DNA of 64,000 nt, taken from assembly GCF_006345805.1 (NCBI RefSeq), contig NC_042998.1, forward strand, positions 13,764,001 through 13,828,000, given 5' to 3'. Position numbers and translations under genes: made by a program. This DNA comes from Octopus sinensis. Lineage: Eukaryota. The notes under the pieces were generated by a model, which saw only the letters and a list, made by a program, of their open reading frames with translations, searched no databases and was not told where the DNA came from. This document shows positions 9,051-34,795 of the stretch, in pieces. The first letter of the stretch is position 1; every line of letters starts with the position of its first letter.

Positions 9051-9400
9051 TACTAAGCAATAAAGGGTTAGCAACGAATTGCCTTACCACATAACCGAAT
9101 TTAGAAATAGCAGTCAAGAGTTATAGCTATTTCTTCTACTAAAAAGGGAGATCTCAGTAAAAACAGCAATTGTTTTTGCTGTTTTTACTGAGATCTCCCT
9201 TTTTAGTAGAAGAAATAGCTATAACTCTTTGACTGCTATTTCTAAATTCGGTATGTGGTAAGCAATTCGTTGCTAAACCCTTTATTGCTTAGTATTACTT
9301 AAATTTTCCTCGAATGAGGGCTTTACATGCCGAAGACTACTTGGTGTAATTGATAATTATTCCAATTAATTAATTTCACCCTTCATTATTACGGATAACC
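9051..9400. mobile_element. Palindromic element in (TA)n, probably Penelope-like pLTR derivative
   Basis: Arms 9051-9169 and 9176-9294 are near-perfect reverse complements. A unique tail runs to ~9400, with (TA)n on both sides. Confidence 0.6.
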
Positions 9401-9431
<31 letters not shown>

Positions 9432-9455
9432 TATTATATATATATATATATATAT

Positions 9456-9491
<36 letters not shown>

Positions 9492-9507
9492 ATACATAGA
9501 TAGATAG

Positions 9508-9561
<54 letters not shown>

Positions 9562-9626
9562 CACACATACACACACACAGATATATATATATATACATAT
9601 ACATATACAAATATATATATATACAT

Positions 9627-9683
<57 letters not shown>

Positions 9684-10197
9684 TAGATAGATAGATAGAT
9701 AGATAGATATAGAGAGAGAAAGAGAGAGCGATAAAGAGAGATAGGAGCAAAAGGCCACGACGAAGAAAAGAGAGAAATGCTAGTATTTTAAACAAAGTTT
9801 TTGTTGAAGTTTTGGTTATTTAAACTAGTTATCTGACACGTAACGTTATTTTTTCTTTCTTGAGTATTGTACAACCACTCTTAAGACATTCCATTCCTTA
9901 TTGCAGTTGTCCTATGCATATCTTCGCCATCACAATTATTACCTTCCCACGCGTTTATTTAGAATATTCCAGTAAATTTCATTGAACTGACAGACATATT
10001 CTCTATTCCCATTTGTAGAGAGAATTTTCCTTTTAACTTGTACTTATTCAACTTCAAAAGACACTCACCTGAAATTACACCCACACACACCTGGAGCATA
10101 TCGAACATCAGACATCAGAATATGCTATATGACATTTGAAAATGCTAGTACATTTTTATCAGTCAAATTTCTTTTATATAACAGCAGTAATTTTGCA

Positions 10198-11147
10198 CTA
10201 GCGGCACCCGTTGATATTTCACGGAATTGTTGGTAAACATATTGGGTTATATCTGAAAACTTTAACCAAAAGACCCCAAAGCATAACCTGTGTTGTGTCT
10301 GCATCGAAAGATAGTTGCTTATGTCTTAATCTTTGAAAAGTGAACGAAACTGCAATACGATGATTACTTATTGCACTTTATACTTTATATACTTTATGCA
10401 CAATTTTATAGACTTAATACACAACGCACTTAAAATATTCACTCTTATTTTTCAATTTTTCCCATAAACAAACACAAAAATCCCGTACATATGATACAAC
10501 CTTTAGTTACATTGTATATATCTACTACGTAAATGAGCCTGAATATTTCACGGAATTGCACTTATGTGTATGCGTTGTGATAGATGATATATAATATTTA
10601 GTTCAATTAAAATAAAAAATACACATTTCACTATCCAATTTCCACCACAACTATCTCTATCTCCACCACCACCACTACTACTACCATCATCATTTCTCCC
10701 TCTCTCTCTCTCTCCCACTCTATCTCTCTTCCTCTCTCTCTCCCACTCTATCTCTTTTCCTCTCACTCCCCACTTTCTCTGCCTTTCTGTAACTTCACCA
10801 TCAGAACATCTCACCTCTGCAAAAAAATTATATTTCTAATTTTCCCCCTCTACATTTAACTAACCCTTTTAACCAAGTGATAAATATTACGTTCCCTGTA
10901 CCTTACGTTATTAATGCTTCTCTTTCTTCTTCTTCCGGCCTCATTCTTCGCCTTATCCTCTTCTTCATTTCTCTTACTTTTTCTCTCTCTCATATCTTTC
11001 AGCTACTCACGTGATCGTTTTACACTTACATCCCTTCTACCTCACGTCATGGACGTTTCTCTCTCCCACTTTCTTTCTCCCGCTTTTTTTTCTGAAAGCG
11101 TTATATACGGGCTGAGTAACGCTATGACAAACATAATGATTATAAGA
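10198..11147 (-). mobile_element. Putative non-autonomous Helitron
   Basis: Minus strand starts A|TCTTATAAT (11147) and ends with a hairpin (ccgt(t)gatatttcacgg) followed by CTAG|T (10198). The boundaries are inferred from the termini only. Confidence 0.4.
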
Positions 11148-11319
11148 TGATATTCCTCTTATGCGTTACCTTATTTTCTGAGCACTACAAAACCAAGTTT
11201 TGTTCATTCTCACTCACATGTACGATCAGTGATGAATTGTCAGATTGATCTTGTCCCCTGGGCATATTACCGTGGCAAATGAAAGATAGGGGATGGAGCA
11301 TACGAGAATTTATTATTAA

Positions 11320-11424
11320 TCTCTACAATTGTTTCGACACATCTAGCATCGCCCCTTCATGGGAGGGACATTCAACAACTGCTTCAGGAGCATCAGGCGG
11401 TGCAGATGTATCTTGTCAGGTGAT
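11320..11424 (-). ncRNA. Type I hammerhead ribozyme motif with long stem II (G8A, probably inactive)
   Basis: Minus strand: atcac CTGACAA gatacatct-gcaccgcc...ggcgatgc-tagatgtgtc GAAA caattg TA gagat; stem III is palindromic. Confidence 0.7.
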
Positions 11425-11836
11425 GAATAAATACAATTCGTTAAAATAATAGTTCCGCAATGTAACTTCTCGTTTTGTAGAAAAGCAACCGGACGGAGAA
11501 AAACAAGAGAAATGAAGACGCAATCCAGCGTGAAAAGTATTTTAAATATCCGTTAACAAATATGGATTTATAAACACCATCGGGAAAGCGTCATGGCGCG
11601 AGTACATTCGCTCATACCAGCATCCGCAAAAATGTGAGCATACGCACACGTGAGGTTTGGTGCACTCATGATTACAAAGCGAGTTAGCTATCTACTTGGT
11701 GTTTGTAAGAACGGTGAGCTTCAAAGTATCCATACCCTAAACTATATTAAATTATGTTAACGGTTGATCAGAATTCATTTCCACTGAATTGTACGAAAGT
11801 ACATTTATATGCGCGTAGGTATCTCGAAAGTTTAAA

Positions 11837-12323
11837 GGCGGCGAGCTGGCAGAAACGTTAGCACGCCGGGCGTAATGCTTAGCGGTGTTTCATCTGCCGC
11901 TACGTTCTGAGTTCAAATTCCGCCGAGGTCGACTTTGTCATTCATCCTTTTGCGGGTCGATAAATTAAGTACCAGTTACGCACTGGAGTCGATGTAATCG
12001 ACTTAATCCGTTTGTCTGTCCTTGTTTCTCCTCTCTGTGTTTAGCCCCTTGTGGGTAGTAAAGAAATAGGTATCTCGAGGGTTTCAAGGCGGTGAGCTGG
12101 CAAAATCGTTAGCACGCCGGGTGGAAATGCTTAGCGGTAATCGTCTGCCGTTTCGTTCTGAGTTCAAATTCGTCCGAAGTCGACTTTGCCTTTCATCCAT
12201 TTGGGATCGATTAAATAAGTACCAGTTACGCACTGGGGTTGATGTAAACGACTTAATCTGTTTGTCTGTCCTTGTTTGTTCCCTCTGTGTTTAGCCCCTT
12301 GTGGGTAGTAAAAAAATAGGTAT
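11837..12323 (+). mobile_element. SINE family A, head-to-tail dimer
   Basis: Two full copies (11837-12073 and 12088-12323). The target repeat taggtatctcga.agtt occurs three times, at 11816, 12067 and 12317. Confidence 0.92.
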
Positions 12324-13749
12324 CCCGAGAGTTGTTCAGAAATTCTATTAATGATCTTCTCGTTAGTCCACATAATAGACAAGGATTCCTCGGAGTAGGG
12401 ACGGCATCTCCTGGAAATTATATTGCATGTTTTCATGTACCTTACTATGAACCAAGTTACGCTGTATTAAATTTTATCCGCCTTCATTCGCCATACAAAA
12501 TCTGCTAAAGATGTTCAATGTCTCCTATTGATTTCTTAAGGTTAGCAACATTGTTACGATAACGATTCTTAAATGGATCAGCCGTCTTCCCAATGTAAAC
12601 ATATGGTCCTCCCCTTGTGTGCACGGTACATTTGTATACAAGTTTTGTATTCATACAGAGATTCATCAAAGGATGTTTTGATTTTTCTCTGCATGAGTAT
12701 TTATCGTATTTATTTGCATATAAGGCTGTCCCAAATCCATTTACCGGCGTTGTTACCTTGTTAGCTGTGCCATAAGTATTTCTATTACTACAAATTTGTT
12801 GTAATTGCTGTTTATAATTAAGCTTTATTTATTCATGGTTGGTATTTAGATGCAAATATATGTATGTATGTATGCATATGTCCATGTGTGTATGTATGTA
12901 CATATGTATGTATGTATGTTTGTATGTATGTATGTAGGTAGGTAGGTAGGTATGTATGTGTGAACGATTCGATAAGCGAGGCGCAGGAAGAACGTTAGCT
13001 TAAAAAAGCTTAAAAGTACAAGAATTAACTTTCAGGTACAGTCTCGGTTTACTGAGGCGAAATGTGGATATTTTCTATATCGAAGTAAGGCAGATGAAAA
13101 TGTTATTCTTATTTTTCGGTAAACTGGCCGTTTTTCCAGGTATGCGAATTAAACAGAAGACTTAATGAATGGAGTAGATAATACCCGGGTTATATATGCT
13201 TCATAGCGAGCGGAACCTCGGAAGTAGAAAATATCCAAGCGAGGGGATTACTGCAGGCTACACTTCAGTTCTTCACTCCAAGTGTATCTTGATTAAATAA
13301 AGTTTACATTGTCGTATAGAGGTACATGAAGACACACGGACGGTTGGACCTGAATGTGTAGTGAGCACGGTTAGAATGGAAAATATATTGTGGAGAGAAA
13401 ATAAGGGGAGTGAAAAAGAAAAGAATATAGGAAAAAAGAAAGAGTCGATAAACAAACATTAAATAGTGGGTGGAGTTTCTTTTCTGTAGTTTCAGCTCAG
13501 AGCTGCGCCCATGCCGATGCACCACCGTTTAATGAAAAAATAAAGACGGACGATATGCCACTAAGCATTTCTGTCTAGCGTGCAAACGGTTCTGCCAGCT
13601 CGCTTGCCTTAAAGGATTGTAAAGAATTTAAGCAAAGGCACTTCGCATGTGGTTTTCATTAGGACCATTTTGGCCGGATCAAAGAAAAATGCTAAGATAT
13701 TGGTATTTCAGGATAACGTGGAGCGAAGAGTGGGGAACATTTGTGATCA

Positions 13750-13862
13750 AGGGCTCCATTCAGTTTCTATCTCCCAAATCCACTCACAAGCTTTTGGTCG
13801 TCCCGACGCTATCGTAGAAGACACTTGCCCCAAGATGCAACTCAGTGGAACTGAATCCGAAA
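13750..13862 (-). mobile_element. SINE family B 5' fragment
   Basis: cagtttc..ccaaatccactcacaagcttttggtcg..gtagaagacacttgccccaag is the reverse complement of the family B head. Confidence 0.75.
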
Positions 13863-14144
13863 ACAATCAGGTTGGCACCTTGTCACGAGTGTCTGTATAT
13901 TTACGTGCCAAACGGTATGAATAATCCATAACACCGAAAAGCATAATTTCGAAACTATACATTCTTATTCACATAGCAATACTTATTTCTAGAAATCAAA
14001 TCCACTAGTGTATATATTAAAACCAGGGTGATAAAATCCAACTTCTAATACTTTGTAATATGAGGTTTTGTCCACTACAACTTTTAATAGTTGGTTATCC
14101 ATATATATATATATATATTGTTGTGTCTATAGAGAGTCATTACG

Positions 14145-14178
<34 letters not shown>

Positions 14179-15060
14179 CATATGAATAATTTACTTGTGC
14201 TATTCTGATATTATTCTCTTGTTTCCTTTCAGAAGTGTCATTAGTCTGTCGGTGGTTCATGCGGCTGCAAATCTTATATAATATTGACGTAAGATTTTAT
14301 TTCATGTCTGCATTAAAAGATTAATTCCTGTATATGTTGACTTGTTTATAATCTTGCTTCAATATATCATGTTCCCTTGTCAAGTAAAATTGGCTTCGCT
14401 TGGCATCAGCAATAGAAGCCAGTACATTCTTTATTGTGAGCTGTTTAGCTGTTTTACTTACCTCATTTACAATATTTGCATTTAATATCAAAACGTGTTT
14501 TAACACAACACACTACACATGCAAACACTCACACATTCACTGACAAACTCAAACACAAAACACACAAGCAAGCACACACAAGCAAGCACATACATACACA
14601 CACACAACCACAGTGCGAGATGAATAGAACTCTATGTCTTTTGAAGTCTATGTGATTCCTGTGAAAATTTTGCATAGCTTGTATCTTGATTTTCACATTC
14701 GTGCAAGTAAAAGGCTTCCTTTTATGAAATGCATGCTGTCAAGTATGCAAAAGTAATTGTCTTCAGGAAAAATAAGGAATATATTTGCCATTATACTCTC
14801 CAAATATGCTATATGGCAAAATACAGACGGCTGCAATGTCACTGACCTAAATTTTGATCTCGGGGCAATCAACTAAAAGTAAAGTTACAGCTCTTATTCT
14901 ATTGCCATTTCCGAATGCCTCGTCTTCAGTAACTCAATAATCTTGTGATCTCATTCTACATTCATCAAATTACCACATCACAACGGAAAACAAACTATAA
15001 ATTTTAATATACATACGTATACACACACAAACATACAAACACTCACACACATCTCTTTGT

Positions 15061-15143
<83 letters not shown>

Positions 15144-15681
15144 TATACAGATGTAAATGTATGTATAGATGTAAATATATATATATGTATATATAGATGT
15201 AAATGTATGTATCTATGCGTGTGCGTTTATGTGTGTGCGTATGTGTGTGTGTGTGCTGGTGTATGAATTCAGCATCATATAATCGATGCCTCCTGGTGGA
15301 CTTCCATTGGAAACACTGCATTAATAGGGAAATACTTGTTACCTATTCTTAGATTAAAACAAATACGGCGATCAATGAAAAGCATTGATCATACAGAATA
15401 TCTATAGTTATCTATAGGTTTCTACTAACACAGTTTCGCTTGAAATTCAGAAAACAATAGTTTATTTGTAGTATGGACTATGAAGCATACTAGTTCAACT
15501 TGCCCTTATAGATTTAACGTATTCCTTAATAAATATGTTTTACTTCCAATTTAACATGTGAAACGATTCCTGGTATGCGATTCAAGGTATACGTGCGTAT
15601 GTGTGAGTATGATATTTCTGGTAGGGAGATTTGTATATTCATGTATACAAATTCAGAAACACACACGCATGTATGCATAAA

Positions 15682-15736
<55 letters not shown>

Positions 15737-15823
15737 CTAAATGTATGTTGGTATATACATATATGTGTGTGTGTGAGTATTTATATAGATATAGAGTTAT
15801 GTACATATATATAAATACATACG

Positions 15824-15854
<31 letters not shown>

Positions 15855-15877
15855 CTATATATATATATATATAGGAT

Positions 15878-16310
15878 ACACTGGGTAAATTAAATTGTCA
15901 CCATTGTATAGTTTTAATTTCGCGCATGTGCATTGTTTGTTTTCGCTCAACACGGAGGCCTACATCAAGTGCCTGGAGGAGATGGTGCTGCCCTGGTCCA
16001 AGAGGGTGACTGCTGGAAGAGTCTATATATTGCAACAGGATTCTGCACCATGCCTACGAGCAGAAGAACCCAGTCACGGCTGGCAGTTAATTTTTTCGAT
16101 GAACTCTCTCCTAACATCTGGCCACCTAACTCCCCAGGTTACCGCCCTCTTGATTATTATGTGTGGAGCACAGTTCAGAGAGAGACCAACAAAATTCCTT
16201 GTAAAACCAAAGATAAACTGAAGGCAACGATTATGAAGACCGTGTTTGAAGCCAATGTCGATTTCATTGAATGCATTTCTCTTCAAGCTATGTTAAATGA
16301 GATGTCTCTG
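15878..16310 (+). mobile_element. Internally deleted Tc1/mariner element, DD37D (maT)-like
   Basis: LNTEAYIKCLEEMVLPW..QQDSAPC, a frameshift, then WPPNSPGYRPLDYYVWSTVQRETN. A TA-flanked terminus tacactgggtaaattaaattgtcacc lies immediately upstream. Confidence 0.8.
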
Positions 16311-16364
16311 TGATTTTACGTTTTTGTGTAATTTAGACAATATATTCACAATGACATTTGTATA

Positions 16365-16565
16365 GGGGGAGTTTACGAAAAAAACAAAAGACGAAGACAG
16401 GTGGTGTACAAAACAAACAGATGTATTAGTATAACGCTCATGAATAGAAAAAGTATTTTACGTTTCGAGCCTACGCTCTTCTACAGAATGGGACACAGAA
16501 AAAAAAACAAGGAGAGAAAAAATGTGTAGTGGCTAACGATCTATCATGGCGACTAGTGCCGGATC
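16365..16565 (-). mobile_element. Short PLE-like repeat with a variant hammerhead motif
   Basis: Minus strand 16488-16455: ttCTGTAGAa gagc gtag gctc GAAA cg TA aaa. A related, degraded stretch lies on + at ~18265-18350. Confidence 0.5.
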
Positions 16566-18415
16566 TATCATTCGTATATATACACATGTGTGTGTGTGTG
16601 TGTGTGTGTTTGTGTGTGTGTATGTATGTGTGAGTGTATACATACATACAACATATATACACATGTACGCATGTGTGTCAGAGTGTGATGTGAAAAATCT
16701 GGCAAACATGTTGCTTCGATGTTACGTGTATGCGGGATATATTTTATCGACATTCTATGAATGAATGATAAATTTCTAAGAAGCAAGACAGTATTGATCA
16801 ACATTCATACGATGATTCAAATGTATGACTTTGTTGTACAGGTTCGATTGACTTTCTCATGATGGAATCCTGTTATATATGAAATCACGATTTCCCTTTT
16901 TAAAATGTCAGAAAAGATGTAAAAAATGTGATATTCGAAACACGTATAAGATGATTATTTCCTGAAAGCTGTTTTTTCTAAGCACCGTTTATGTCTCTCT
17001 GGGATAAACTGCAGCCATGTCATATGTAAGCATCTGCGCAGAACACCGTATATACTCTGCTGCTCCTCACTGCAATGTGTGCATCACAGCTGAAGGCGTA
17101 CAGTCATGAAAGGAAATCCGACCCCTCTATAAGACACTCAAGCGTCTGTTGGCAGCTGCACGTAGTTGGGCTCAAGGTCATGGGATGTAAGTGAATGGGG
17201 TTTAAATAAGAATACTTATTTACCATACTCCACAATCTCCATGTCTTGACCATTCGGATTCAGAAATTTTCAACACGTTTGCAGATGAGATAGAATATAG
17301 GGATTTTATCAAATTTAGCAGAGTTTAGTAAGAAATCATTTTTGGTGTGGGTCACTTTTAAGGTATTTCTGTCAAAGACGTATCTTTTAGTTTCTATATC
17401 ATTCTTAGTACTGAAAGAATATTATTTGAACACTAGTAATACTAGTAATAGATCAGTCAATAGCGTCGTCAAGCCTGTTATACAAATGCAATATGAGTCT
17501 GCGCTTTTCCATCTCCGGGAGGACTATTGTGAATGTAATTCGAAGTATATAATATACGTTGGTTTAAGTTTATACTCTTATACAAACTCTTAGATTTCTG
17601 TATCCGAGATAACTAACGCTTGCTAGCAGTTGACTATGTGAACTTATTTGGCAATTTGACATGCATTGTGTGCTCACAGTTTCTTAGCAGTCTATCTTCC
17701 AGTGCACGCTGAAAGGGTGTGTTTTTCAGACAACGATGGTCACTAAATTACAAGCTATACTGTGGTTACATGTTAAAAGTAGCACTCAATTGAAAACTAA
17801 AAAGGAAAACCTTGTGGGCAATCCATCTAATACTCATTTTGATCACTGATTGACAATATGAGACTGCTAAGGCAGTTGCTTCTGCAAAAGAAAAAAGAAA
17901 ATTTTGGATATTCGGAGGGAAAATATTGGTAACAAAAAGAGGACAATGGGGACATGGAAGGACACCGAACGAAAACGAATGTGGAAGGTGGTTAGACCAG
18001 ACGAGGTAAAGTAGTGAACACTGGAGAAATACTGTATGAACGATGGTCACGTGTGAGTAAGGAAAGAGAGTGAAAAAGAGAGAGAGTAAAGGAGAAAGAG
18101 GGAAAGAGAGATATACAATGGCGGAAGGGAGAAAGAAGGAATTAGAGAAAGGATGAGAGATATAACGATATGGATATATATATATACATACATATATATA
18201 TATAGATATATATACGTATCAGCAATACCAAATACACACGTGCCGTAGGCGATTTGTTTTCGTTTTGGTGACTTTTCCCTTTCTGCTCCCCGACGAAGAG
18301 CTCAAAACTTTTCCTTTCACCTAGCGTCAGACTAATTCATTTCTTGCGCACATCCTTATGCTGTCAGTTTTTATTCGTTACATTGGACTGCTTGTTAATT
18401 TGAATTGACTATATA

Positions 18416-18465
<50 letters not shown>

Positions 18466-18596
18466 ATAATATATATATATATAATATTATATATAATATA
18501 TATATATGTAATATATATATATGTATATATATAATATAAATATCTATATCTATATATATTGTCGATTCAAATTAACAACAACAATCCAATGAAACG

Positions 18597-18632
<36 letters not shown>

Positions 18633-18635
<3 letters not shown>

Positions 18636-18843
18636 GGAGTAAACACATAAATGTGAAACAGGTGGAAAAAAGAGTACTCAAATACAGTGGTAGAGTAATA
18701 TGCTTTATTTTAAGCAGCAGAAAATTCAACAAAATCTGTTACACTGAGTTTCTCGTTGCCGTTCATCAGCAGTTTTTGCTAAAAACTGTCTGATGACGGC
18801 AACGAGAAATCAGAGTTAACAGATTTTGTGGAATTTTCTGCTG
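18633..18843. mobile_element. Palindromic hammerhead-bearing element in (TA)n
   Basis: Arms 18715-18777 and 18781-18843. Arm consensus ctgt CTGATGA acggcaacga GAAA ctcagag TA acag; AATAAA downstream on minus. Confidence 0.75.
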
Positions 18844-18870
18844 TGAAATTTAAAATATATTATATTATAT

Positions 18871-18931
<61 letters not shown>

Positions 18932-19729
18932 AATATATATATATATATTATATATATATATATATATAATATATAAATATATAATATATATATATAATAT
19001 ATATATATATATATTTATATTTATATTTATATACATATATATATATTTATATTTATATATATATATTATAATTATATACATATATATATACATGTGCATG
19101 TGAATGCGAGGTTTACACCATGTGTAGGCGTGGTCATGCTTTCGCATTGATTGATACCATTATATTATCTTATCAAATTAGTGTATGAATCTTACACTTA
19201 GTTAATAGGAGTTTATCTTAATATCACATAAATATCCCTTTCGATTGCTGGGTATTTTTTTTGTACATATTCGCGTATTCACTCTCCATGCGAACTCTCA
19301 GAAATAATTTAATTACTGTTCTGACAGACCTACGGTCTCCCGATGAATTAATATCATATACAGCATGAGGCAGTATGCATAATATTGGCACACCGTCCGG
19401 TACCATATTTTCGATGTGGCGCGGTTCAGATATTGCTACTAATATTTTTCAGTCCCATATGACCATTGATACAGCAGAACGAAGTAAGTGATATTCCAAC
19501 CATGATTATCCCAGATTTTCATTCATATATATTTAATCTGGACTACATTATCTATTATGCATGAATGCCCATAATTAGTAAGAGATTTTCTTGTTATCAA
19601 TGAGAGGGATGAGTGTAGTGTCTCGTGAAACCATGCAAGAATCCATGATATTCAAAGTTTGTTCTGTTACGTTTACCATCTTTCATTTCCTGATTTCGAT
19701 GATGATTAACCAATCTTTCTTTAATAGTA

Positions 19730-20118
19730 AGCATGGAAGCACTCCGTCGGTTACGACGATGAGGGTTCCGGTTGATCCTAATCAACCGAACAGCCTGCTC
19801 GTGAAATTAACGTGTAAGTGACTGAGCACTCCACAGACACGTGTACACTTAACGTAGTTCTCGGGAATATTCAGCGTGACACAGAGAGTGACAAAGCCGA
19901 CCCTTTGAAATACAGGTACAACAGAAACAGGAAGTAAGAGTGAGAGAAAGTTGTGGTGAAAGAGTACAGCAGGGATCACCACCATCCCCTGCCGGAGCCT
20001 CGTGGAGCTTTTAGGTATTTTCGCTCAATAAACACTCACAACGCCCGGTCTAGGAATCGAAACCGCGATCCTATGACCGCGAGTCCGCTGCCCTAACCAC
20101 TGGGCCATTGCGCCTCCA
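19730..20118 (-). mobile_element. tRNA-derived SINE family C, full length
   Basis: Minus head tggcccagtggttagg (A box) and ggtttcgattcc (B box); homologous to 35432-35815; TSD tttctttaatagta at 19716-19729 and 20121-20134. Confidence 0.92.
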
Positions 20119-20407
20119 CTTTTCTTTAATAGTACGCGTATAAGCAGGATGTCTGCATCCTGTACGATTAGTACAGATTGGCTTACATATTAAGCAGAAA
20201 GAAATGTGAGAATGATAAATAGAAGCATAACATAATGTAACTGTAATTTCAGGATGGGATAATAAACTTATCACTGTATCATTTTCAGGTAGTTTGTGAA
20301 AATAGAACTGGGGAGAACAGGGAGTAAATCTAGAAAACTAAGCGCAAAGGCGGACGTCATGTATCAAAACTACAAGGTTAGATTATAGGTGGTATATTGC
20401 AATCGAG

Positions 20408-22653: not shown

Positions 22654-22688
22654 CATACATGTATATGCATGCATAAATATCTTTGTAC

Positions 22689-22774
<86 letters not shown>

Positions 22775-23090: not shown

Positions 23091-23091
<1 letters not shown>

Positions 23092-23138
<47 letters not shown>

Positions 23139-23260: not shown

Positions 23261-23506
23261 CATTCAGTAGTTTTATTTTTATAGCGTGCTTCACTTCACT
23301 ACTGAGCGGAGCTCTGTGTGCCTTGGGTATGTGCTGTTGTAGAATTAGGGGCCTCCTGTGTCTGTCTCCCGTGCGTTTGTACACTCAGTATACGATATGT
23401 AGTTTGTTTATTTACCATGTATTTTTCATTTATATATAAACATATATAAATATATATATATATATTTATATATATATATATATGCGTGTGTTTGTGTGTG
23501 TGTGTG

Positions 23507-23757
23507 TGGAGGTGCGTGGCTTAGTGGTTAGGGTGTCAGCATCATGATCGTAAGATTGCGGTTTCGATTCCTGGACCGGGCGACACGTTGGGTTCTTGAG
23601 CAAAACACTTCATTTCACGTTGCTCCAGTCCACTCAGCTGGCAAAAAGGAGTAACGCTGCGATGGACTGGCGAACCGTCCAGCTGGGGAACACATACGCT
23701 ACTGAAACCGGCAAACCGGGCCCATGAGCCTGGCTAGGCTTTAAAAGGGCGCATTTA
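23507..23757 (+). mobile_element. tRNA-derived SINE family D
   Basis: tggcttagtggttagg A box, ggtttcgattcc B box, then ttgagcaaaacactt and gcgatggactggcgaaccgtccag (V-SINE-like block); sits between microsatellites. Confidence 0.8.
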
Positions 23758-23784
23758 TGATATATATATATATATATATATATA

Positions 23785-23991
23785 AACGTTAGCACGCCGG
23801 ACGAAATGCGTAGCCGTATTTCATCTGCCGTTACGTTCTGAGTTCAAATTTCGCCGAGGTCGACTTTGCCTTTCATCCTTTCGGGGTCGATAAATAAAAT
23901 ACCAGTTTCGCACTGGGGTGTGTAATCGACTTAATCCCTTTGTCTGTCCTTGTTTGTCCCCTCTATGTTTAGCCCCTAGTGGGCCATAAAG

Positions 23992-23995
<4 letters not shown>
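23785..23995 (+). mobile_element. SINE family A, 5'-truncated, within (TA)n
   Basis: aacgttagcacgccgg...ataaagaaata matches the family A body. Confidence 0.88.
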
Positions 23996-24043
<48 letters not shown>

Positions 24044-26029
24044 TTATATATACATATAACCACACACACTTCTATATATAGCTATATATATATATATATA
24101 TGCATGATTGCATGGGGAAGTGATTTCGTTATTTTGCTTGTGTGCGTATGGCTATCATTTTGCGAATGAGAATGTACATGTTTCTATGAGTAGCGCCAAC
24201 CAAAGGATGGACATATTTAAATGCTCAATAGAACGTTTTAATAGAATGTAGGAAATCGTGCACTGGGGAAGTTTGTTGAAATGTTCCTGGCTTTCGATAA
24301 AAGAAAATACAGAAGGATCAGTTAATTATGATTTTGCTCACCATATTCTACTCTCAGATTCACACACTAATTGCAGGGTGCCTTTAGTTTTTCTAAGCCT
24401 CCTAAAAGAAGTTGCTATGCTGGATCTTCAACTAGGCCGTTAGCGATATCTTTAAAACCAAGAGTATTTCGACATCTGACATATCCTTCTTTTACTCGCC
24501 GTGCTAGCAAGAGGCTAATACGAACGAGTGTTAGAATTGCATATCTATAGGAATCTGATTTTTCTCATATGTTTCTTACGCGCTCATCGGTAGTTTTCAA
24601 ACATATAACTAGAGTTCCCTTTTAACAAAATGTTATGTTCTTTAGATATCAATATGTAGTTATACGCATTTCGTTGCCCTAAACTAGAAGAGTCAAACTA
24701 CTGACGCACGAGCAATGCCGTTTTATATTTCTTACTCTTTCCAATCATCATGCACGTTCTATGCAGGAGTAACGTTATTTTAGTTTGCATTCACGTTGAA
24801 AGTACCCGAATATCTTCTCACTCTTTTGAATTAATAATATGTTCTTCTTGTCACGGAAAACCTTCATCGTACGTCTAACTTTTAAGCTTCCTATATCTTT
24901 GTCTATCTAGCAATCTTTTGCATTTCAATTAGTTTATCAAGCTCATTCTCTATTTTGGATATCTTATGTGCAGAGTGCAAAGGGACCCTCCGTTTTTTAG
25001 GCTAATATTTTCGGTTTCACGTCAAAACAACCAGGGAACGTAGAACCCTTCCATCCGAACAAAATATTTCCCGAGCCACTACAAAATTTCCAGCTCACTG
25101 AAGAGCATACTCATGCATGTAACCGAATCTCTGATATCGCGTGTATAAATATTTATGTTTACGACAACGTTTTATATCTCCCTGCTTTTTATATGTTTAT
25201 TGGGCGTTATAATTTGCACGAACAAGCATGTTCATTTACGCTCATACTTACGCATGTATGTTTACATATACATATATACATGTACAAACACACACACACA
25301 CACACATATGCATATTTTCGTAGGCATTACATGCATATTCACATATGCACGTTCATATTTTTCTTATAGTTATCATAATGAAATCGTTTTGAGCAGCATT
25401 TTCACCTGTTCGGAATTAAAAATAACGTCAGTATTTGATATTATGATTAAGGCGTCAAGGTAGTAGAATCGTTATCATATCCAGCACAATGCTTAGCGGC
25501 ATAACCTCAGTAAAATTCCTCCGAGGTCGACATTGCCTTTCATCCTTTCGGGGTCGTTAAATAAATACCAGTTGAGCAATAGCAACGACGCAATTGTCTT
25601 CTCTCATCACTCACCCAATATTGATGTCATTGCACTAAAATTTGAAACCGATTTTAGAACGTACTCCATTGAGTTTCTCACTTGTTCTTCCCAAATATCT
25701 TGTCTAAATTCAACATAAATCTTGTCTATTCCACAAAGTGTAAATATAAAACAACCTATTCATCAACGATGTGCTAACTACATTTTTGGGATTCAATTCG
25801 TTATGACACTTGGAATGTAAATGTGTAAATGTCTATTCGCATATCTTTATCAAATTTTTAATTAATGTTACATTCATTCCACTACCTAAAGATATGGACA
25901 TCAGTCTTTCTCTCACACTCATAAGGGTTTTCTTTTATAGTATATGCTTTCAATATGGTGTGAATAATATCTTCTTTATTGAATTGTTTAATAGAGGATT
26001 TTCTCTAAATTATATACATATATTATATA

Positions 26030-26415
26030 CTAGCAAATCGCCCGGCGTTGCTAGGGTTTGTTGCGACCCATTAGAATTGGAATTTTTGAAAAGTAAAACA
26101 TTTGCATTATGTAGCTTGTTATTCTCTTTAAGTGAACATTTTTCTGGTTGAAATACACCGAACAATGGTGACTCAGCATTCAAAAACTCGTAAAAAAAGG
26201 GATTTTCATAGAAAAAAGCACCTTTTTGATGTAAATACTTTTTGATCTTAACATGGTCCTATTTAAATTTTATCTTCTACAGAATGAAGAGCAAGCCTTC
26301 TATCATACTCTCAATTTTGGTCATCTTGCGCCGCAGTGTCTTGGAGGAGATTGTGTGAGTTGAAGGCTACCAAACCTGCCACATACAGACAACTTATGCT
26401 TTATATATATATAGA
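26030..26415 (-). mobile_element. Non-autonomous Helitron (~386 bp)
   Basis: Minus strand 5' A|TCTATATATATAA and 3' GC-rich hairpin (cccggcgttgctaggg, 26041-26056) about 10 nt before CTAG|T; no TSD. Confidence 0.75.
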
Positions 26416-26504
26416 TTGTGAAATTTAATTTAAAATTGTTAAATTGAATTTTTCCTTGTAAGTTTTGAAGTTATATTCCTTACTATCATATATATGTATA
26501 TATA

Positions 26505-26547
<43 letters not shown>

Positions 26548-26565
26548 ATATATAATAATATATAT

Positions 26566-26597
<32 letters not shown>

Positions 26598-26835
26598 ATA
26601 TATATATATATATATAACAACAGCAATTGCAGCGTGGAAGGTGTTTGTAAGCCATTTAAGAAACACACGAAAGCCGTTCGATACACTTCAACATTTAAGT
26701 TTAATTTGTCAAAATATTTTCGTCGCTAAAATCCGCGACCTGTTCACTGATAAAAATCCGTGATGCAGCACGGATTTTTGTCAGTGAACAGGTCGCGGAT
26801 TTTAGCGACGAAAATATTTTGACAAATTAAACTTA

Positions 26836-28120
26836 CGAGGGGTGTTCAATAAATAATGCCCCTGACCCACTTGCAGTTGTTTGATCTAGCTGATCTGCAT
26901 GTGCAATTATTTATATCTCTATAGATTAAGTGGCAAATTACAGCTCTGACCTAATTGTGGTTTCTGATTTACAGGTGTTTGAACTGAGTCAAGTGTGAAA
27001 TCGAGCCTGTTGAGTGTCGAGCAGTGATCCGGTTTTTGTATTTGAAAGGACGCACACCACGGGAGACTTTTGATGAAATGAAAGTAACTTATGGTGATGA
27101 TGCCCCATAATATGACCTTGTAAAACGCTGGAATCGTGAATTCAAACATGGTCGGAACTCTGTGGAAACAGCCCAGATCTGGTTGCCCCCTTCTGCCATT
27201 GATGGAGCATCTGTCCGTCAAGCTGAGGCTGCCATTTGGGAAGATTGATGCATAATTATTCGCCAAATAGCCCATGAGGTCAAGATTAGTACCGGGTCTG
27301 TGGAAACTATCATTCATGACCATTTGCATATGCAAAAGGTGTCTGCCAGATGGATTCCCAGGTTGCTCACACCTTTCCCGAAGCAAAAATGCGTCGAGTT
27401 CTCGAGGATGAATTTGGAGATATGCCAAGAAGATGAGTCAACATTTTTCAAAAGACTGATTACACAGGAGGAAACCTGGGTCCATCACTATGATCCAGAG
27501 ACCAAAGCCTAGTCAATGCAGTAGAAGCACCGTGACTCACCTCCTCCAAAGTAGGCAAGGGTGCTGCCCTCCGTTGGCAAGGTCATGCTCACAGTCTTCT
27601 GGGACCAGGACAGAGTAGTGATGACAGATTTCCTGGCAAAGGGTACCACAATTACAGGACCCTATTATGCTTCACTTTTGAGGAAATTAAGAGAAGCTAT
27701 CAAAATCAAGAGGCGGGGCAAGATCAGCAAAGGCATCCTCCCCCTGCAGGACAACGCCCCGGTCCACAACTCGCGTGTTGCCGGGTCAGAAGCACAGGCG
27801 TGCACCTATGAACTCCCCCCATCTCCCCTACTCTCCTGATCTTGCACTCTCTGATTTTCACCTCTTCCCAGCCATGAAGTTGTTTTTGTAAGGAAAGCGT
27901 TTCTCAGATGATGCAGTCTTGATTTCTGAAGTCAAGTTGTGGTTGGAGAACCAAGCTGGAGTCTTCTACAAAAACGGTCTCCAGAGCTGCATTAAATGAT
28001 GGGAGAAATGTGTAACTCGGGGTGGTTCCTATGTAGAAAAAGACTAATAACTGTGTCAAGTTTCGTTGCTCTACTGCTATGGGAAGTGGGTGAGGGGCAT
28101 TACTTATTGAACAACCCTCG
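26836..28120 (+). mobile_element. Full-length mariner (DD34D) element, 1285 bp, inactive
   Basis: TIRs cgaggggtgttcaataaataatgcccctgacccactt / aagtgggtgaggggcattacttattgaacaaccctcg, with a TA duplication at 26834-26835 and 28121-28122. Confidence 0.97.
26995..28047 (+). pseudogene. Mariner transposase pseudogene
   Basis: ECRAVIRFLYLKG, WIPRLL, ITQEETWVHHYDPETK, KVMLTVFWD, LQDNAPVH, PYSPDLALSDFHLF; several stops and frameshifts. Confidence 0.95.
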
Positions 28121-28270
28121 TAAATGTTGAAGTGAATCGAACGGCTTTTGTGTGTTTCTTAAATGGCTTACAAACACCTTCCACGCTGCAATTGTTTTCG
28201 TTTCAGCACACGATTTCAGATCAAATTACTTGCTATGCGGGTACATCTCCGTAATATATAATATATATAT

Positions 28271-28339
<69 letters not shown>

Positions 28340-29605
28340 GGATGGGGGGATGAGGGAGCGGTTGTCACATGCTGAATAATGAGGTGGGTACGCAGAAATG
28401 AGTTTTTGTGGCAGTTCATGCCTATGTTAAAAGTTCTGAGTTAAGTTCTTAGTCTGGAACATCTAATTATAAATATATACGTGTGCGTGTGTTTGTATGG
28501 ACATGTGCTTGCGTGTGTGAGAGTGCGTGTGTGCGTGAGTGTATATGTGTTTGTGTGAGTATGTGTGTGTGTGTATATGTGTGTGCGTGTGTGTGTGCGT
28601 TTGTGTGTGTATGTGTCTACCGTTTAGCCCTACTTATACTTGCTGCAGCTTTCAGCCTGTGTATGTTGAGCCGGCCCCAACCAACGGGTCACATTCAGAC
28701 TTTCTGTGGGAAAACAAGTACACATGTGGCTCCTTGTTACAGGCATGCTGTACACAACTTGGAAGTATATTCTTGGGAAAGATCAGAAAACCTATAGAGT
28801 AAGAAATCCACTAATACTCTTACAATTCCAAATCAATACTGTATTATTACTTACTTTACAAGGATCCTGTATTTTCAAAATGCCTAAGTGTTATTATCCC
28901 ATGCGCAATTTACGACAGCTAGTTTATGGAGACCATTATGTAATTATTGTATACGCAGTTTGTTTCAGTTCATAATTTTCCATTGAGTATGGTTTCATTT
29001 TCAGAAAATATATGATATACAATGTAATTTTTCCAAAATATTTATAGACACATTCTTTGGTATTATCAACGATGTAAACGTTTTCACTTATATTTTAGGA
29101 TTAAAAAGACAAAACTGTGTTTTATTTTTTAATGTGAATATGATAGTATCAGAACATTTATCTGTCCATTAGGATATATTTTCTACTAAACATACATTTT
29201 TGCATAATACTCCTATTGTTTTGCTTTGAAGAGCATGTTTTATATCTAAATCGTTGTGTATATTCTTTAATATTATTACAATAATACGATACTTTTCCTT
29301 TTTCATAATGCAAATAAAAGGAGATATGTATATATGAATATATTTGAAGAAGTTTCTTCTTCTTGAAAAAAAATATATATATATAGTTTCGGAATTCTGC
29401 AAGTATACAAATCAAATATGCAAATTGTTATTCACCATTTTGGTTTCGTTTATAGGTAAGTTTATATAGAGGAAAATGTTGGCCTACCTTTTGTGGAAGT
29501 GGAGATGATTTCAAGCTGTGAAAAATAATTCGTTTTATATCATTTATTACGAATCATTATCCGAAGATGTATTTACCTATGATTTATTCAAATTAAGCTG
29601 ATGAC

Positions 29606-30010
29606 CGAGTGGCTGTGTGGTAAGTAGCTTGCCTACCAACCACGTGGTTCTGGGTTCAGTCTCACTGTGTGGCATCTTGGGCAAGTGTTTTGTGCTATAG
29701 CCTCGGGCCGACCAATGCCTTGTGAGTGGATTTAGTAGACGGAAAATGAAAGAAGCCTGTCATATATATGTATATATATGTATGTATGTGTATGTATATG
29801 TTTGTGTATCTGTGTTTGTCCCTCCAGCATTGCATGACAACCGAAGCTGGTGTGTTTACGTCCCTGTCACTTAGCGGTTCGGCAAAAGAGACCGATAGAA
29901 TAAGTACTGGGCTTACAAAGAATAAGTACCGGGGTCGATTTGCTCGACGAAAGGCGGTGCTCCAGCATGGCCGCAGTCAAATGACTGAAACAAGTAAAAG
30001 AGTAAAAGAG
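29606..30010 (+). mobile_element. SINE family B, full copy with internal microsatellite
   Basis: gtggctgtgtggtaag head, gggttcagtc B-box-like, cttgggcaagtg CORE-like block, (TA/TG)n interior, gtaaaagagtaaaagag tail. Confidence 0.9.
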
Positions 30011-30633
30011 TATATAAGTGTTTTAATTTGATTTTTATAAGCCTTGGCCTGTGATCTGCTGATGCAAATGCAGGGGGAAATGCTGTGTAGTTGAATTCTG
30101 GGAGAGAAACGTGTTCACATTTATCCACTTGCCTTCACACAATGCGATACAATAGCATATCAGGTTTGTAGAATTCTATCTTAATTATGATATCATCTCT
30201 TTTTTACAAGTGGCATAAAGTGCTCGGTTCACACTCATTGGAACTGAACATAACTTCAGATAAAGAACTTTAATTGTGATATGATATTTTAATATACACT
30301 TACTAGTCGTCATTATTCCAATATCATTGAACACATTTCTTAATTCGTTTATGTTATAAAGTATTTATGTATGTAGATGCGTATATATCTTCCAAGGAAT
30401 CTAATGATCTTAGCTTAGTTTTTCTTTGGGGCTGGCCACATTGGAGCAATCTCAAGAATAATAAGCCGAACTTGCGAGAATAATCTGATGCTTGACTGAG
30501 GAAAGAATACTTCGAATGACCAGTACTTGTTTTCTTTGTAACGTCTATCTGGATGATTTTTTGTCCTTTTTGTATCAGCTAGCTGTCCAGACGTTTTGCG
30601 TTCTTGTCACATTTTGCATTATATATATATATA

Positions 30634-30674
<41 letters not shown>

Positions 30675-30989
30675 GTGTATGTATGTATGTATGTATGCAT
30701 GCATGTATGTATTATGTATGTATGTATGTATGTATGTATGTATGTATGTATGTATATCTGAGTACGTACACTTTGCTCCCTTATATGTATGGAGGTAGGT
30801 ATATAGAATAGAATAATAAATATATCATGCAATATTTCAAACATTTTTAACCCCTCAATATACTTTTCCATTTTTGTATTGGTATGCAATTACATCGAAA
30901 TGCATTTCTATTTAATAGGACTATTAATAATAAACAAACGTAAGTATATACGCGCATACGTGACTGAGGAAAGAATACTTCGAATGACC

Positions 30990-31255
30990 CGTAATAAGAA
31001 GCTTTCGTGCCAGCCACATGGTTTCCGAGGTCAGTCTCATTGTGTGACACCTTTGGCGGTTGTCTTCTACAATAGCCTTGGTGTGAGTGGATTTGGTAAG
31101 CTGAAACTGAAATGCCATGGTATATATATGTGTGTGTGTATATGTCTATGCGTGTGTGTGCGTGTGCGTAGATTCATACGGCTAACATTCCTTCAAGGTG
31201 GTGCCCCAGCCTGGTCGCAGTCTGATAACTGAAACAAATAAACGGTAAAAGAAAG
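30990..31255 (+). mobile_element. SINE family B, degraded and deleted
   Basis: ccacatggtttcc..ttgtcttctacaatagcc..gtgagtggatttggta..ggtgccccagcctggtcgcagtc..ctgaaacaa. Confidence 0.7.
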
Positions 31256-33584
31256 GGATAAAATACGGACAACTGCAAAATGCATAAATTGATAATTGTT
31301 TTGGTTTACACTCAAGTCAATTATAGCCGTTCGGAATATGACATCAATCTTTTCATCTTCTATCCATTATGGAATATTTTTAGTGGAAGAGCCTCCTGTC
31401 CAAAATAATTTTATTTTTTTTTTAAGACACTAAGGGATAAATTGATAAAGATTTCCCTGTGCAACCACATGGTAGCATTTACCGTTACATCGAATGTCAG
31501 ATAGATTTGATGAGTTACATGTCCATGGCTCTTACGAGAAGATACCTGTCAAAAATACATGAGAAAACAACATGAGAAAATAAACTGATTATTTATTTCA
31601 TTAAAACTGTTATCAAAATAAAACACTTTAGGTAATTTTTCGTCAATCACTTCTAATTATTGACCCCATTATCACACTGGGGAAATTAATGAATGTCACA
31701 TAAATATTTCTTCTACACCCTGATCAGTTTAAAATCAAAAGTCATTCGTAGTGCAAAGTTAATACCGTACTTTGATAAATTACTCTTCTCATCAACAATT
31801 ATCCGTAAAGCTAATAACACCAAAATTTTATATGAACTTTTTCATCGTTCAGGCGTTAAATCCTTAAAACGTGTTTCGTTATTTTCTGTGTTTTTATTAT
31901 ATCATTATTTCTTTTGGTTTCTAATAATATTTTTAAAGAAAATACAAGTGGTGTTTCCACACAATAACGGGACTACGTTATTTTATTTTATTCCCACTTC
32001 AATTTAATTAAAGGTGCATTCATGCAACCAAGATGCATGGATTTTAAACAGGTGAAAGCTTTGAACGACGTGTTATGTCATTATGGATTAAGATACATTA
32101 AATTCATTTGATTTACTTTTTCTTAGTTTTTCGTTTTTTTTTTGTTTTTTTCATGACAGTGATGTTAATTATTTATCGTTGGAAGTAATTGCGAAAATTA
32201 CCTTCAAGATTCTTGATCAAAATTTTGACATGGCTTTAAAAACTGTTATATTATTAATCATGGAAGTCAATTTTCGTTCATGAAGTGTTTGAGCCCTGCA
32301 TAGTACTGACAGATAAAAAACACTTGCTCACTGTCATTAAATCAAACTCACTTCATGTTGAATTTCAGATATTCCAGCTACGTAACGCTTCTTTGTTGAT
32401 AGTTCTACGCTAATTGCTATAATTTTGTACATCACACGCAACAAAAATTGGAGCCTAGGCCTATGTGTTTATCAGTGCAAATATCAATCTTGTTTTCTCT
32501 CATAACATTTAATGTTACAATAGATCCACTATTCATTTTTAAACGATAAAGAGTGGCTTCAAATGGCATAAAATTTATTTTAACAATAGCTATTGATTCC
32601 AGACAGTAATATGTGCCTTAGGTAAACATTTGACTACTATTTGTAGCAACCCCTGCATCCTTGATTATTTTCTTCGTTTATCTCGTCGTAGTACTCCAGC
32701 AGTTTACAATTATCCTATCGTTGCCCAAATTCAAACCAGTAGGTATATGAGCAAATTTTGTACAGGTAGGACACTCCTGTATCTTTAAAAGTAACTACAA
32801 ACTTATTGTTCACTATGAACTTTCTTTGTATAGGTGCTGATTTTCTACATGTGACGCTTCTGTATATATTCTATATTAATAATCAAAGTATTATTGATTA
32901 TTTTAATTAGTATTGTATCAGGACATAAATTGCACCTGTGGAAGAAGAGTCAGGCGTATATAAATTGTAGATACATTGCAAAAGATCTTGTTTAGTTACA
33001 AGTCAATTTTAATGGTGATTTGATGCAATCGAAAAAAAATAATTGCAAAATATAACTGTGCTCTTTGTAGTTATTTCAAGATCATATGTCAGTAGAGAAC
33101 ATCTTTGTGTAGACATCACGAATTCGAGGCTGGAAAAATAACTTCAAGCCAAAATATTTCCTTAATAGATTTGATAAATATAGAGGTAAATAAAACCCTT
33201 ATTGGATAATTATCATCTTTTTTATGTCAGATAATATTTAACGCAAAAGCTAGACATTTCATTTCCTAGCCTATTTGAAAGCAAGAAAAGATATTCAGTT
33301 ATTGTACACATATGAAAGTGAGTCGATAAATGAATGAACAATATATCTTGTAGCATCAAATTTATAGTTTGATTTTAAATGCCAATTATTCCGTCTTTAA
33401 GCATATATATATATATATGTGTGTGTGTGTGAGTGTTTATATATGTACATATATATATATATATATATATAATATATTATATATATATACATATATATAT
33501 ATCTATATATATTATTATATATATATATATATATAATATATATAATATATATATATATAATATATATAATATATATATATTATT

Positions 33585-33637
<53 letters not shown>

Positions 33638-33741
33638 TAATATATATATATATATATGTAGGTCCCGGGTTGAGTCGGGGTTAACCACAGTAAATAAGGT
33701 ACTCAATACATAGCAGAGTAAATTAATTTATTTTATAGAAG

Positions 33742-33794
33742 GAGCTTCTACAGGACTAGAACTGTTTCATTCAAAAGAAATCATCAGGAAGCTT
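33742..33794 (-). ncRNA. Minimal type I hammerhead ribozyme (intact core)
   Basis: agcttc CTGATGA tttcttttgaat GAAA cag ttctagtc ctg TA gaagct: stem I agcttc/gaagct, stem III cag/ctg, GUA cleavage triplet. Confidence 0.8.
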
Positions 33795-33841
33795 CCTGAT
33801 GATTTCTTTTGAATGAAACATTTCTAGTCCTGTAGAAGCTC
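33789..33841 (+). ncRNA. Second, mirror-image hammerhead copy
   Basis: Same motif on + with one substitution in stem III (cat instead of cag). Confidence 0.72.
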
Positions 33842-34795
33842 CTTCGATATATATATATATATATATATATAAGCTGGTAAATACAATAAATAACCTAATG
33901 CGTTTCAAAACCTCACTGCTTCACTTTCCATAAGCCAGCCCCTTATTATTACGCAATGTAATAATATTTTATAAATATATTGATAATGATTCAGTACTGT
34001 CCTATTCATTTCGCATAATTTATTTAAATATTCAACGTTGTATAAGCCAGATATATTGCTCTCTATTTGAACCATATATCATGGTGTTTATTTTTCATGG
34101 TAGCACAATTTTGACAAAGATTAACATATACAAAAGAACTTTGTTTTAAAAGATACAATTTGAAAATGTGTGCATTCAAATTTGTTTCAAATACATAAAA
34201 TATGTGTTGGTAAATCTATCAAGAAACTGGAATAAAATATGTTGACAGATTGTGAAAAAAAAAATGGAAGCAGTGACATATTTCTGTATATTTAATGAGA
34301 AGTATCGATTTGTTTAGAAAATAAGAAGAAAAGAGTTTAATAAATGATATATATACTCTGCGCTCTGTACGTTATCAATAAAATCAGTGACATTGACAGA
34401 AGAAATATCTGTTTTATTTGCTAAATAACACAATGTTTTTAACTCAAAGTTACGAAATACAATGCTCTATCAACAATTGTATGATAGTTTGAAATTTGCA
34501 GAGAAGCGTCAGCACGTCACAATATTCATTTCGATTTAGCGCAGTTCAATACTTCCCACCGTTCCATTGCCCAAGTCTAGACATTTAAATAAGTATTCTC
34601 TTGAAAGACTGTTTTAACTGAATATAGTTGTTAATAAAATATTGCTTTACTTTTCTGAGTTACTTATATATAATGCATAAAATTAGTTTATATGCTGTAA
34701 ATTTAAAGATATATAGACTAATATCCGAAATATATTTACAAAATTAAAGAAAGTAACATAATTATCTGAGGTTGCTTCAAAAAAGAAACATGAGA

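Follow-up and report, generated by a model that had tools for sequence, protein, structure and literature searches.

Head-to-Head Insertions of Three Penelope-Like Element Ends and a Hammerhead Retrozyme in (TA)n Tracts of Octopus sinensis, Likely Formed by Two Target-Primed Reverse Transcriptions Each

Introduction

For Penelope-like elements (PLEs), an inverted 5'-truncated copy, a tail on one side only and a bias towards (TA)n targets are described, including in octopus Hydra elements, and an inverted 5'-truncated copy was noted for Penelope-13_HM (PMC8557442). Opposite-strand hammerhead pairs 100–700 bp apart were noted in 2014 (PMC4209133), and junction palindromes with 8–10-bp duplications are known from rotifer Penelope (PMC3846280). 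In vitro, an anole PLE nicks and extends both target strands, with uncleaved RNA as the template and two internal reverse transcriptase (RT) start sites bounding the tail (PMC11167929). How tandem and inverted structures form, and what underlies the preference for microsatellites, are counted among the open questions on PLEs (Craig et al. 2021, PMC8557442). Retrozymes and their suspected dependence on PLEs have been described as well (PMC7229834; bioRxiv 10.64898/2026.07.22.740005), PLE mobilisation having so far been argued from shared hammerheads, co-occurrence and phylogeny. For all published sources cited in this text, our comparisons apply to their passages on element architecture, ribozymes and clades. 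Here we describe four palindromes in 64,000 nt of Octopus sinensis DNA (assembly GCF_006345805.1, contig NC_042998.1, positions 13,764,001–13,828,000), hereafter the window, called E1 (9051–9400), E2 (18633–18853), E3 (26624–28253) and E4 (33658–33847) in window positions. We read them, with a probability of roughly 0.8, as head-to-head 5'-truncated insertions of three PLE ends, namely pseudo-long terminal repeats (pLTRs), and of a 599-nt hammerhead repeat, each likely produced by two target-primed reverse transcriptions; the identity of the parents is firmer than the mechanism.

The Palindromes and Their Parent Elements

Each of the four elements is a long near-perfect inverted repeat with a tail on one arm only and (TA)n on both sides, in agreement with a preliminary description of the window, which had placed this shared architecture correctly. 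E1, E3 and E4 were recovered by a palindrome scan of the window and E2, which carries several indels, by self-alignment, and the scan returned no further non-microsatellite palindrome in the window. The 1.6 kb initially ascribed to E3 is right for its location and not for its size, since the element is about 350 bp long and split by a 1,288-bp insertion (26835–28122) that we take, by resemblance, to be a mariner-type DNA transposon.

Two origins had been proposed at the outset, either ORF-less (open reading frame-less), retrozyme-like families mobilised by PLE enzymes or extreme 5' truncations of PLEs. The latter turned out to be right for E2, E3 and E4, for which the suggested search for full-length parents with RT and a GIY-YIG endonuclease was successful in the same genome; these parents carry the three sequences as pLTRs. 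The E2 parent (locus L182) has a 723-aa open frame with RT plus a GIY-YIG at its C-terminal end, stopping roughly 1 kb before the E2 sequence, and one E2-family locus, L183, is a 5.1-kb palindrome. A 675-aa open frame with RT and GIY-YIG motifs was found in the E4 parent (L486), and the E4 pLTR also occurs downstream of the RT, across a long microsatellite-rich untranslated region (UTR), in L247 and L248. The E3 parent shows the order pLTR-ORF-pLTR in L425, a whole 5' pLTR being present in one of seven long loci, and an 839-aa open frame with RT and GIY-YIG motifs in L426; the E3 pLTR and tail together encode the first ~30 residues of its protein. As in endonuclease-containing (EN+) PLEs, all three parents have a single RT plus GIY-YIG ORF and a type I hammerhead pLTR before and after it: directly before the ORF in 28 of 30 E2 loci (found with the 5' end of the ORF), upstream of the RT in 7 of 30 E4 loci, and in L425 for E3. 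They also share the inverted 5'-truncated copy, the one-sided tail and a target-site duplication (TSD) or microsatellite target. Homologues of the parent proteins carry PF01541/PF26215/PF00078, and telomerases were the first matches of an AlphaFold model of the E3 parent (mean predicted local distance difference test 84). A sequence search of the PDB gave nothing for the E2 parent and, with the E3 profile, only two weak RT matches.

The E2 and E4 parent proteins are 42% identical, and the motifs LRWK, SDKT, CNCKSESSC, CKLC and CRH of the former correspond to IRWR (R for K), SDKT, CNCPDKTTC, CDLC and CMH in the latter. Both have the C-terminal GIY-YIG, RWK/RWR, DKT, CxCX5C, YRDDG, C-terminal CxxC/CxH instead of CCHH, (TA)n insertion and minimal, canonical hammerhead near the 3' end that are described for Hydra-clade PLEs, which include Hydra-1_Obim from octopus (PMC8557442). 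Judged from their sequence, E2 and E4 are thus the pLTRs of two Hydra-clade PLEs. The short length of that clade (<3 kb), a tendency with no diagnostic value, does not extend to these parents, whose 3' UTRs are longer (~1 kb in E2; >3 kb and microsatellite-rich in E4). The hammerhead listed for Hydra-2_aMil closely resembles that of E2 (PMC8557442), both families differ from Hydra-1_Obim when compared by eye, and their tails of 66–70 nt exceed the 30–40 bp described for PLE tails.

A Neptune-like GIY-YIG in locus L244 was considered as the E4 parent and rejected, being a separate nested insertion. L244 and L491–L520 belong to an abundant Neptune-like PLE family with inverted arms of its own.

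E1, a 599-nt Retrozyme

The E1 unit is an ORF-less 599-nt sequence repeated in tandem. Every unit has a type I hammerhead with a CUGAAGA core, a long helix II and GAAAC-GUAC-GUC, and the core (CTGAAGA) was present in 37 of 38 matches. On this sequence evidence E1 is assigned to the 3' part of an ORF-less tandem non-LTR retrozyme. The retrozyme-like, PLE-mobilised origin first suggested for all four elements therefore suits E1, with the correction that the unit is the 599-nt tandem monomer and not the palindrome. A degenerate core reported in the E1 tail found no support: the hammerhead of the family, which the window copy lacks, lies ~70–165 nt upstream of the palindrome centre.

ORF-less tandem units with one type I hammerhead each, a palindromic helix III and sizes from part-units to ~13 units are common to E1 and to the published non-LTR retrozymes (PMC7229834; bioRxiv 10.64898/2026.07.22.740005), in which units of ~300 nt are typical (150 to over 1000 reported); the E1 unit has 599 nt and a helix II of ~80 nt. 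E1 arrays differ in their head-to-head arrangement within (TA)n and in their two fixed ends, the signature of PLEs, and some are head-to-head on both sides, as in L552 (3.6 plus 4.8 units). The word 'inverted' is absent from the text of PMC7229834, and head-to-head arrays are not described in the retrozyme passages of bioRxiv 10.64898/2026.07.22.740005. Head-to-head retrozyme arrays with the end signature of PLEs provide structural evidence for the mobilisation of retrozymes by PLEs and favour one-step insertion over local growth of arrays.

Diverged relatives of E1 (62–72% identity; L247, L040, L060, L181 and L428), some of them tandem with a period of ~540 nt, represent several retrozyme-like families inserted into (TA)n inside UTRs of other PLEs. 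No ORF was seen beside them among the loci examined, and no similarity to E1 was found in 30 loci of the Neptune-like PLE family.

Abundance, Fixed Outer Ends and Variable Centres

Exact matches to tail words numbered 2,470 for E1 (array units counted), 4,546 for E2, 2,508 for E3 and 2,926 for E4, with none for the reversed controls; the possibility that the elements are single-copy, which would have spoken against a family of mobile elements, is thereby removed. A DNA similarity search with the E4 tail gave nothing, despite its abundance by exact word count. Searches with whole elements score only the 40 most similar candidates, so that look-alikes come first and centres seem fixed; copies were therefore sampled by tail queries and by pattern hits taken in order of position instead. 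The position-ordered E2–E4 samples are the first pattern hits along contig C1 and miss arms more than ~560 nt away, their counts thus being lower bounds.

An adjacent inverted arm was present in at least 17 of 29 E2 copies (one of 30 remained unaligned), at least 16 of 30 E3 copies and at least 39 of 70 E4 copies of these samples, and 41 of 54 E1 insertions were head-to-head. The arms end at two sites, site A being the tail end and site B lying upstream of it by 66 nt in 13/17 E2, by 52–61 nt in 15/16 E3 and by 65–77 nt in 38/39 E4; 88 of 95 arm 3' ends of E1 fell at monomer positions 494–503 or 589–599. Across the four families A and B are about 55–105 nt apart. The centres vary: distinct pairs of arm starts were counted in 21/23 E2, 18/18 E3, 21/23 E4 and 14/14 E1, a few of them being false matches to microsatellites. 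That E3 and E4 centres seemed fixed among top matches was due in part to biased ranking and in part to a genuine hot spot immediately 5' of the hammerhead. A fixed centre had been named as the mark of a propagating mini-element, and that option fails on the variation among tail-sampled copies; because the outer ends are fixed and the centre differs from copy to copy, the palindromes do not spread as fixed units. A miniature inverted-repeat transposable element (MITE) or other fixed palindromic element was likewise rejected, given the variable centres, the one-sided tail and the lack of a constant interior or of two-ended terminal inverted repeats.

Either arm may be the longer one, the tail-less arm extending further upstream in the clear cases L122, L147, L160, L171, L268 and L291. 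The 3' flank was (TA)n in 13/13 E1, 29/29 E2, 16/30 E3 and 67/70 E4 copies. Targets were (TA)n or AT-rich sequence. At non-(TA)n targets, direct repeats of 10–14 bp enclose palindrome plus tail in seven of eight E3 palindromes, indicating that each is one insertion. The two arms of a copy agreed at subfamily sites in 57/60 (E2), 43/46 (E3) and 120/124 (E4) comparisons, values reached by 0 of 2,000 shuffles (means 0.55–0.64); the 7/7 agreement of E1 was reached by 64 of 2,000.

The preliminary description had pointed to inverted 5'-truncated pLTRs with hammerheads in PLEs, and these are indeed a published feature, as are the tail and the (TA)n targeting. The architecture being already published, the finding as first stated is an ordinary one: a head-to-head truncated copy, a one-sided tail and two RT starts are shared with described PLEs (PMC3846280, PMC8557442, PMC11167929), and a difference is that here the whole insertion often consists of only two pLTR arms. 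New in detail are the two fixed sites at which the arms end, the freedom of either arm to be the longer, the subfamily variants shared by both arms, and a concentration of inner ends just 5' of the hammerhead, often preceded by an untemplated G. In the passages on PLE architecture cited here we saw no counterpart to the symmetry of arm lengths, the concordance of arms, the hard stop at the inner end or the extra G.

Inner Stop and Proposed Mechanism

Inner arm ends of E4 fell at exactly one base in 28 of 78 cases and within −8/+2 of it in 51, and in the window copy the two arms meet through an AAGCTT overlap (33789–33794) that is the hard stop of this family. The free base before the stop was G in 10 of 14 arms (E3 and E4) vs 9 of 30 elsewhere (Fisher p = 0.02). 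A spliced upstream exon as the cause of the stop was set aside, no common sequence being visible by eye before the stop across copies. The PLE copies (E2–E4) span the ribozyme cut site, and their templates were therefore uncleaved. Of the 64 sub-unit arms of E1, 55 have their start on the predicted cut or downstream of it, a count confounded by length decay, and this gives a weak hint of cleaved templates.

In the mechanism we propose, the GIY-YIG endonuclease would nick both target strands ~12 nt apart, and RT would prime one cDNA at each nick, one starting at RNA site A and the other at RNA site B, of a single RNA or of RNAs from one locus. Both cDNAs would stop early and their 3' ends would be joined, often via short self-complementary words (AGCT, CTAG, TGCA, CAATTG). 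Many cDNAs may run off at a fixed point 5–20 nt upstream of the hammerhead core, where the pLTR transcript likely has its capped start; palindromes copied from uncleaved pLTR RNA would then be the commonest product. E1 would be mobilised by a putative PLE enzyme acting in trans. Two-strand priming of this kind would agree with the in vitro behaviour of the anole PLE. The cap step is the weakest part: a YAG stands at the stop, which might be a pause or an end related to splicing.

Several observations weigh against this interpretation. Pfam finds no family in the E2 and E3 parent proteins, the two scanned, so that the domains assigned to them depend on motifs, on homologues and on one structure model, and for E1 a helper PLE was sought without success. 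Of the three PLE families, E4 alone has a sharp hard stop: inner ends lie exactly on it in 4/32 E3 and 0/34 E2 arms and within −8/+2 in 10/32 and 12/34, respectively. The YAG at the stop resembles a 3' splice site, and the stop could also be an RT pause at the ribozyme. The test on the extra G is small and post hoc and includes at least one arm of a diverged subfamily. Variants unique to one tail arm recur in the partner in only 13 of 58 cases, by which a shared template is neither proved nor excluded. Among the pieces listed, no independent contig crosses the E4 centre with 31 bases on both sides.

With the same parents, the inverted arm might instead arise by self-priming (fold-back) of the cDNA or from an antisense template, as proposed for junction palindromes of rotifer Penelope (PMC3846280), which would account for centres often lying on short palindromic words and for arms that share subfamily variants. 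A single fold-back, however, cannot yield sequence upstream of its own start plus a tail unless more template jumps are admitted, and the free choice of the longer arm, the tail on only one arm and the fixation of both outer ends make this route unlikely. The palindromes could also be self-propagating ORF-less mini-elements, whose short copies would themselves be donors, with an internal pLTR promoter driving their transcription. Most copies are indeed short, with ends concentrated at one inner site, and the internal pLTR promoter of D. virilis Penelope (PMC2377424) suggests that solo pLTRs could yield some templates. Against such donors, the distinct start pairs counted above imply that the palindrome is rebuilt at each insertion, and ORF-bearing parents with near-identical pLTRs exist; we consider them quite improbable.

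Artefacts of assembly or of long-read fold-back would fit the many homopolymer indels in the assembly and the failure of any independent contig to bridge a centre fully. Contigs of four runs from four studies hold the E4 family, a few of the listed pieces crossing its centre (to 33804–33820), and no RNA dataset is among the sequencing runs listed as holders. But flanks are unmirrored, TSDs enclose palindrome plus tail, the mariner copy sits in one arm only and family-specific ends recur in thousands of copies. Together with MITE-like DNA transposons, which the one-sided repeat with a tail and without terminal inverted repeats contradicts, artefacts are hardly credible. Head-to-head insertion from two primed cDNAs remains our preferred reading, and its value lies in offering a test bed: the copies are young, number in the thousands and show two fixed ends, a sharp stop on the inner side and a possibly cap-derived G, which together give explicit predictions for 5' rapid amplification of cDNA ends and for in vitro assays.

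The E3 Parent Lineage

By eye against the published figure, the CQSNCAVC linker and the C-QEGA-C with two His of the E3 parent correspond to a CX2-5CxxC linker and a CCHH GIY-YIG. The RT3–RT4 spacing has a median of 131.5 aa in the 32 homologues aligned of 129 (range 68–135, the short ones being N-terminally cut), vs 59–63 aa in six other PLE-type RTs. The E3 parent thus combines an RT finger insert of roughly 70 aa with a C-terminal endonuclease and the motif DKS, and named homologues of the lineage come from octopus, sea cucumber, corals and snail.

Nematis and Neptune share with it the C-terminal GIY-YIG, the CX2-5CxxC linker and CCHH but have no finger insertion. Naiad/Chlamys and telomerase share the finger insert, whereas in Naiad/Chlamys the endonuclease is N-terminal and the motif is DKA. 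Finger inserts are stated to be restricted to PLEs with an N-terminal endonuclease (Craig et al. 2021, PMC8557442). Set against the clade descriptions of that work, the combination of C-terminal endonuclease, 131-aa spacing, DKS and a G3-C8 hammerhead core matches none, and a literature search on PLE clades returned no report of an E3-type lineage.

Extending this reading, and tentatively, the genome may record PLE integration through symmetric two-strand priming from two RNA sites and a strong-stop-like run-off at the capped pLTR start, the same machinery inserting whole retrozyme arrays in one event. E3 might then stand for an undescribed PLE lineage of marine invertebrates, with a telomerase-length finger insert, a C-terminal GIY-YIG and a natural G3-C8 hammerhead that is still active.

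Hammerheads and Tail Motifs

With a stem descriptor, hammerheads were recognised in both arms of E4 and in the plus arm of E3. Of the two elements initially credited with canonical CUGAUGA/GAAA hammerheads in both arms, E4 is borne out in full; E2 has the core motifs in both arms, each of which fails the descriptor in the window through single-base indels, and other copies are intact. The hammerhead topology proposed for E3 also stands, and the core taken as foreign reads GUGAACA, differing from that of a regular hammerhead by a C3G/G8C swap. The suggested check by Rfam did not recover what the descriptor found: no hammerhead was among the matches listed for the window (150 of 166 at E ≤ 1), and nothing reached the gathering score in four parent loci.

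GUGAACA was the core in 79 E3-family arms (the loose pattern used had 38 further matches, mostly due to chance), and the helices of this G3-C8 hammerhead are intact (fold z −3.15). Natural covariation of the U3-A8 core pair is already published, and G3-C8 is known as an engineered partial rescue. A literature search gave no report of a natural G3-C8 core, which a study of small PLE hammerhead variants lying outside that search may contain; such a core would extend the known U3-A8 covariation.

A subfamily of E2 with a CCGAUGA/CCGACGA (U4C) core occurs among L354–L383 and L121–L150, 18 of 58 regex matches starting with CCGA. Since it has spread regardless, cleavage is suggested to be dispensable.

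The tail motif noticed as common to E2 and E4 is a TACTC...GAGTA stem, present in the minimum free energy structure of both tails. It begins 5–6 nt after site B (18672–18699 in E2, 33699–33720 in E4), a similar stem is visible by eye in the Hydra-2_Amil tail, and E3 has a TACTTGC...GCRAGTA motif. Compared with shuffled sequences, the hairpins of the tails show no gain in folding (z −0.1 to −1.1). The stem is a candidate RT-binding element.

Feature Coordinates and Neighbouring Sequences

Table 1. Parts of the four palindromes (window positions) and loci of the E3 parent.
Feature	Position	Strand	Remarks
E1 tail-less arm	9051..9172	-	outer end = site B (position 494 in the 599-nt retrozyme monomer)
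E1 tail-bearing arm	9173..9294	+	monomer about 371-494; without hammerhead in this copy
E1 tail	9295..9400	+	105 nt between sites B and A (monomer 495-599)
E2 tail (Hydra-clade PLE pLTR, by sequence)	18633..18702	-	full elements: ~70 nt more to ORF start
E2 tail-bearing arm	18703..18776	-	minimal type I hammerhead, core 18763-18769 on minus strand; single-base defects
E2 tail-less inverted arm	18777..18853	+	core 18790-18796; outer end degraded
E3 tail-less arm	26624..26765	-	core position 26741-26747
E3 tail-bearing arm, part 1	26766..26834	+	hammerhead with G3-C8 core GUGAACA at 26784-26790
Insertion in E3 arm	26835..28122	+	1,288 bp, inverted ends, broken transposase; later event, at a TA
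E3 arm part 2 and tail	28123..28253	+	tail 28195-28253; ATG 28163 = first ~30 codons of parent PLE ORF
E4 tail (second Hydra-clade PLE pLTR, by sequence)	33658..33725	-	full elements: ~45 nt more to ORF start
E4 tail-bearing arm	33726..33791	-	intact type I hammerhead, core 33781-33787
E4 tail-less arm	33792..33847	+	core 33796-33802; one helix III mismatch
E3 parent loci	L425 G000:C2:32068500-32078499; L426 C13:53096500-53106499; L424 C16:8967500-8977499

Next to E2, at 18276–18409, lies a decayed PLE-like end whose hammerhead-like motif is broken, and a 40-nt inverted copy of its terminal part is found beyond the (TA)n tract at 18559–18601. A decayed GIY-YIG-like coding remnant on the minus strand (12272–12828) has marginal similarity to the E4 parent protein (E = 0.05). 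Besides the copy within E3, a second broken mariner-type transposase copy, labelled so by resemblance, is located at 15918–16313. Fragments at 45035–47996 on the plus strand presumably derive from a Helitron Rep/helicase, which they resemble, and 9-bp and 22-bp minisatellite arrays with open frames stand side by side at 50867–51691.

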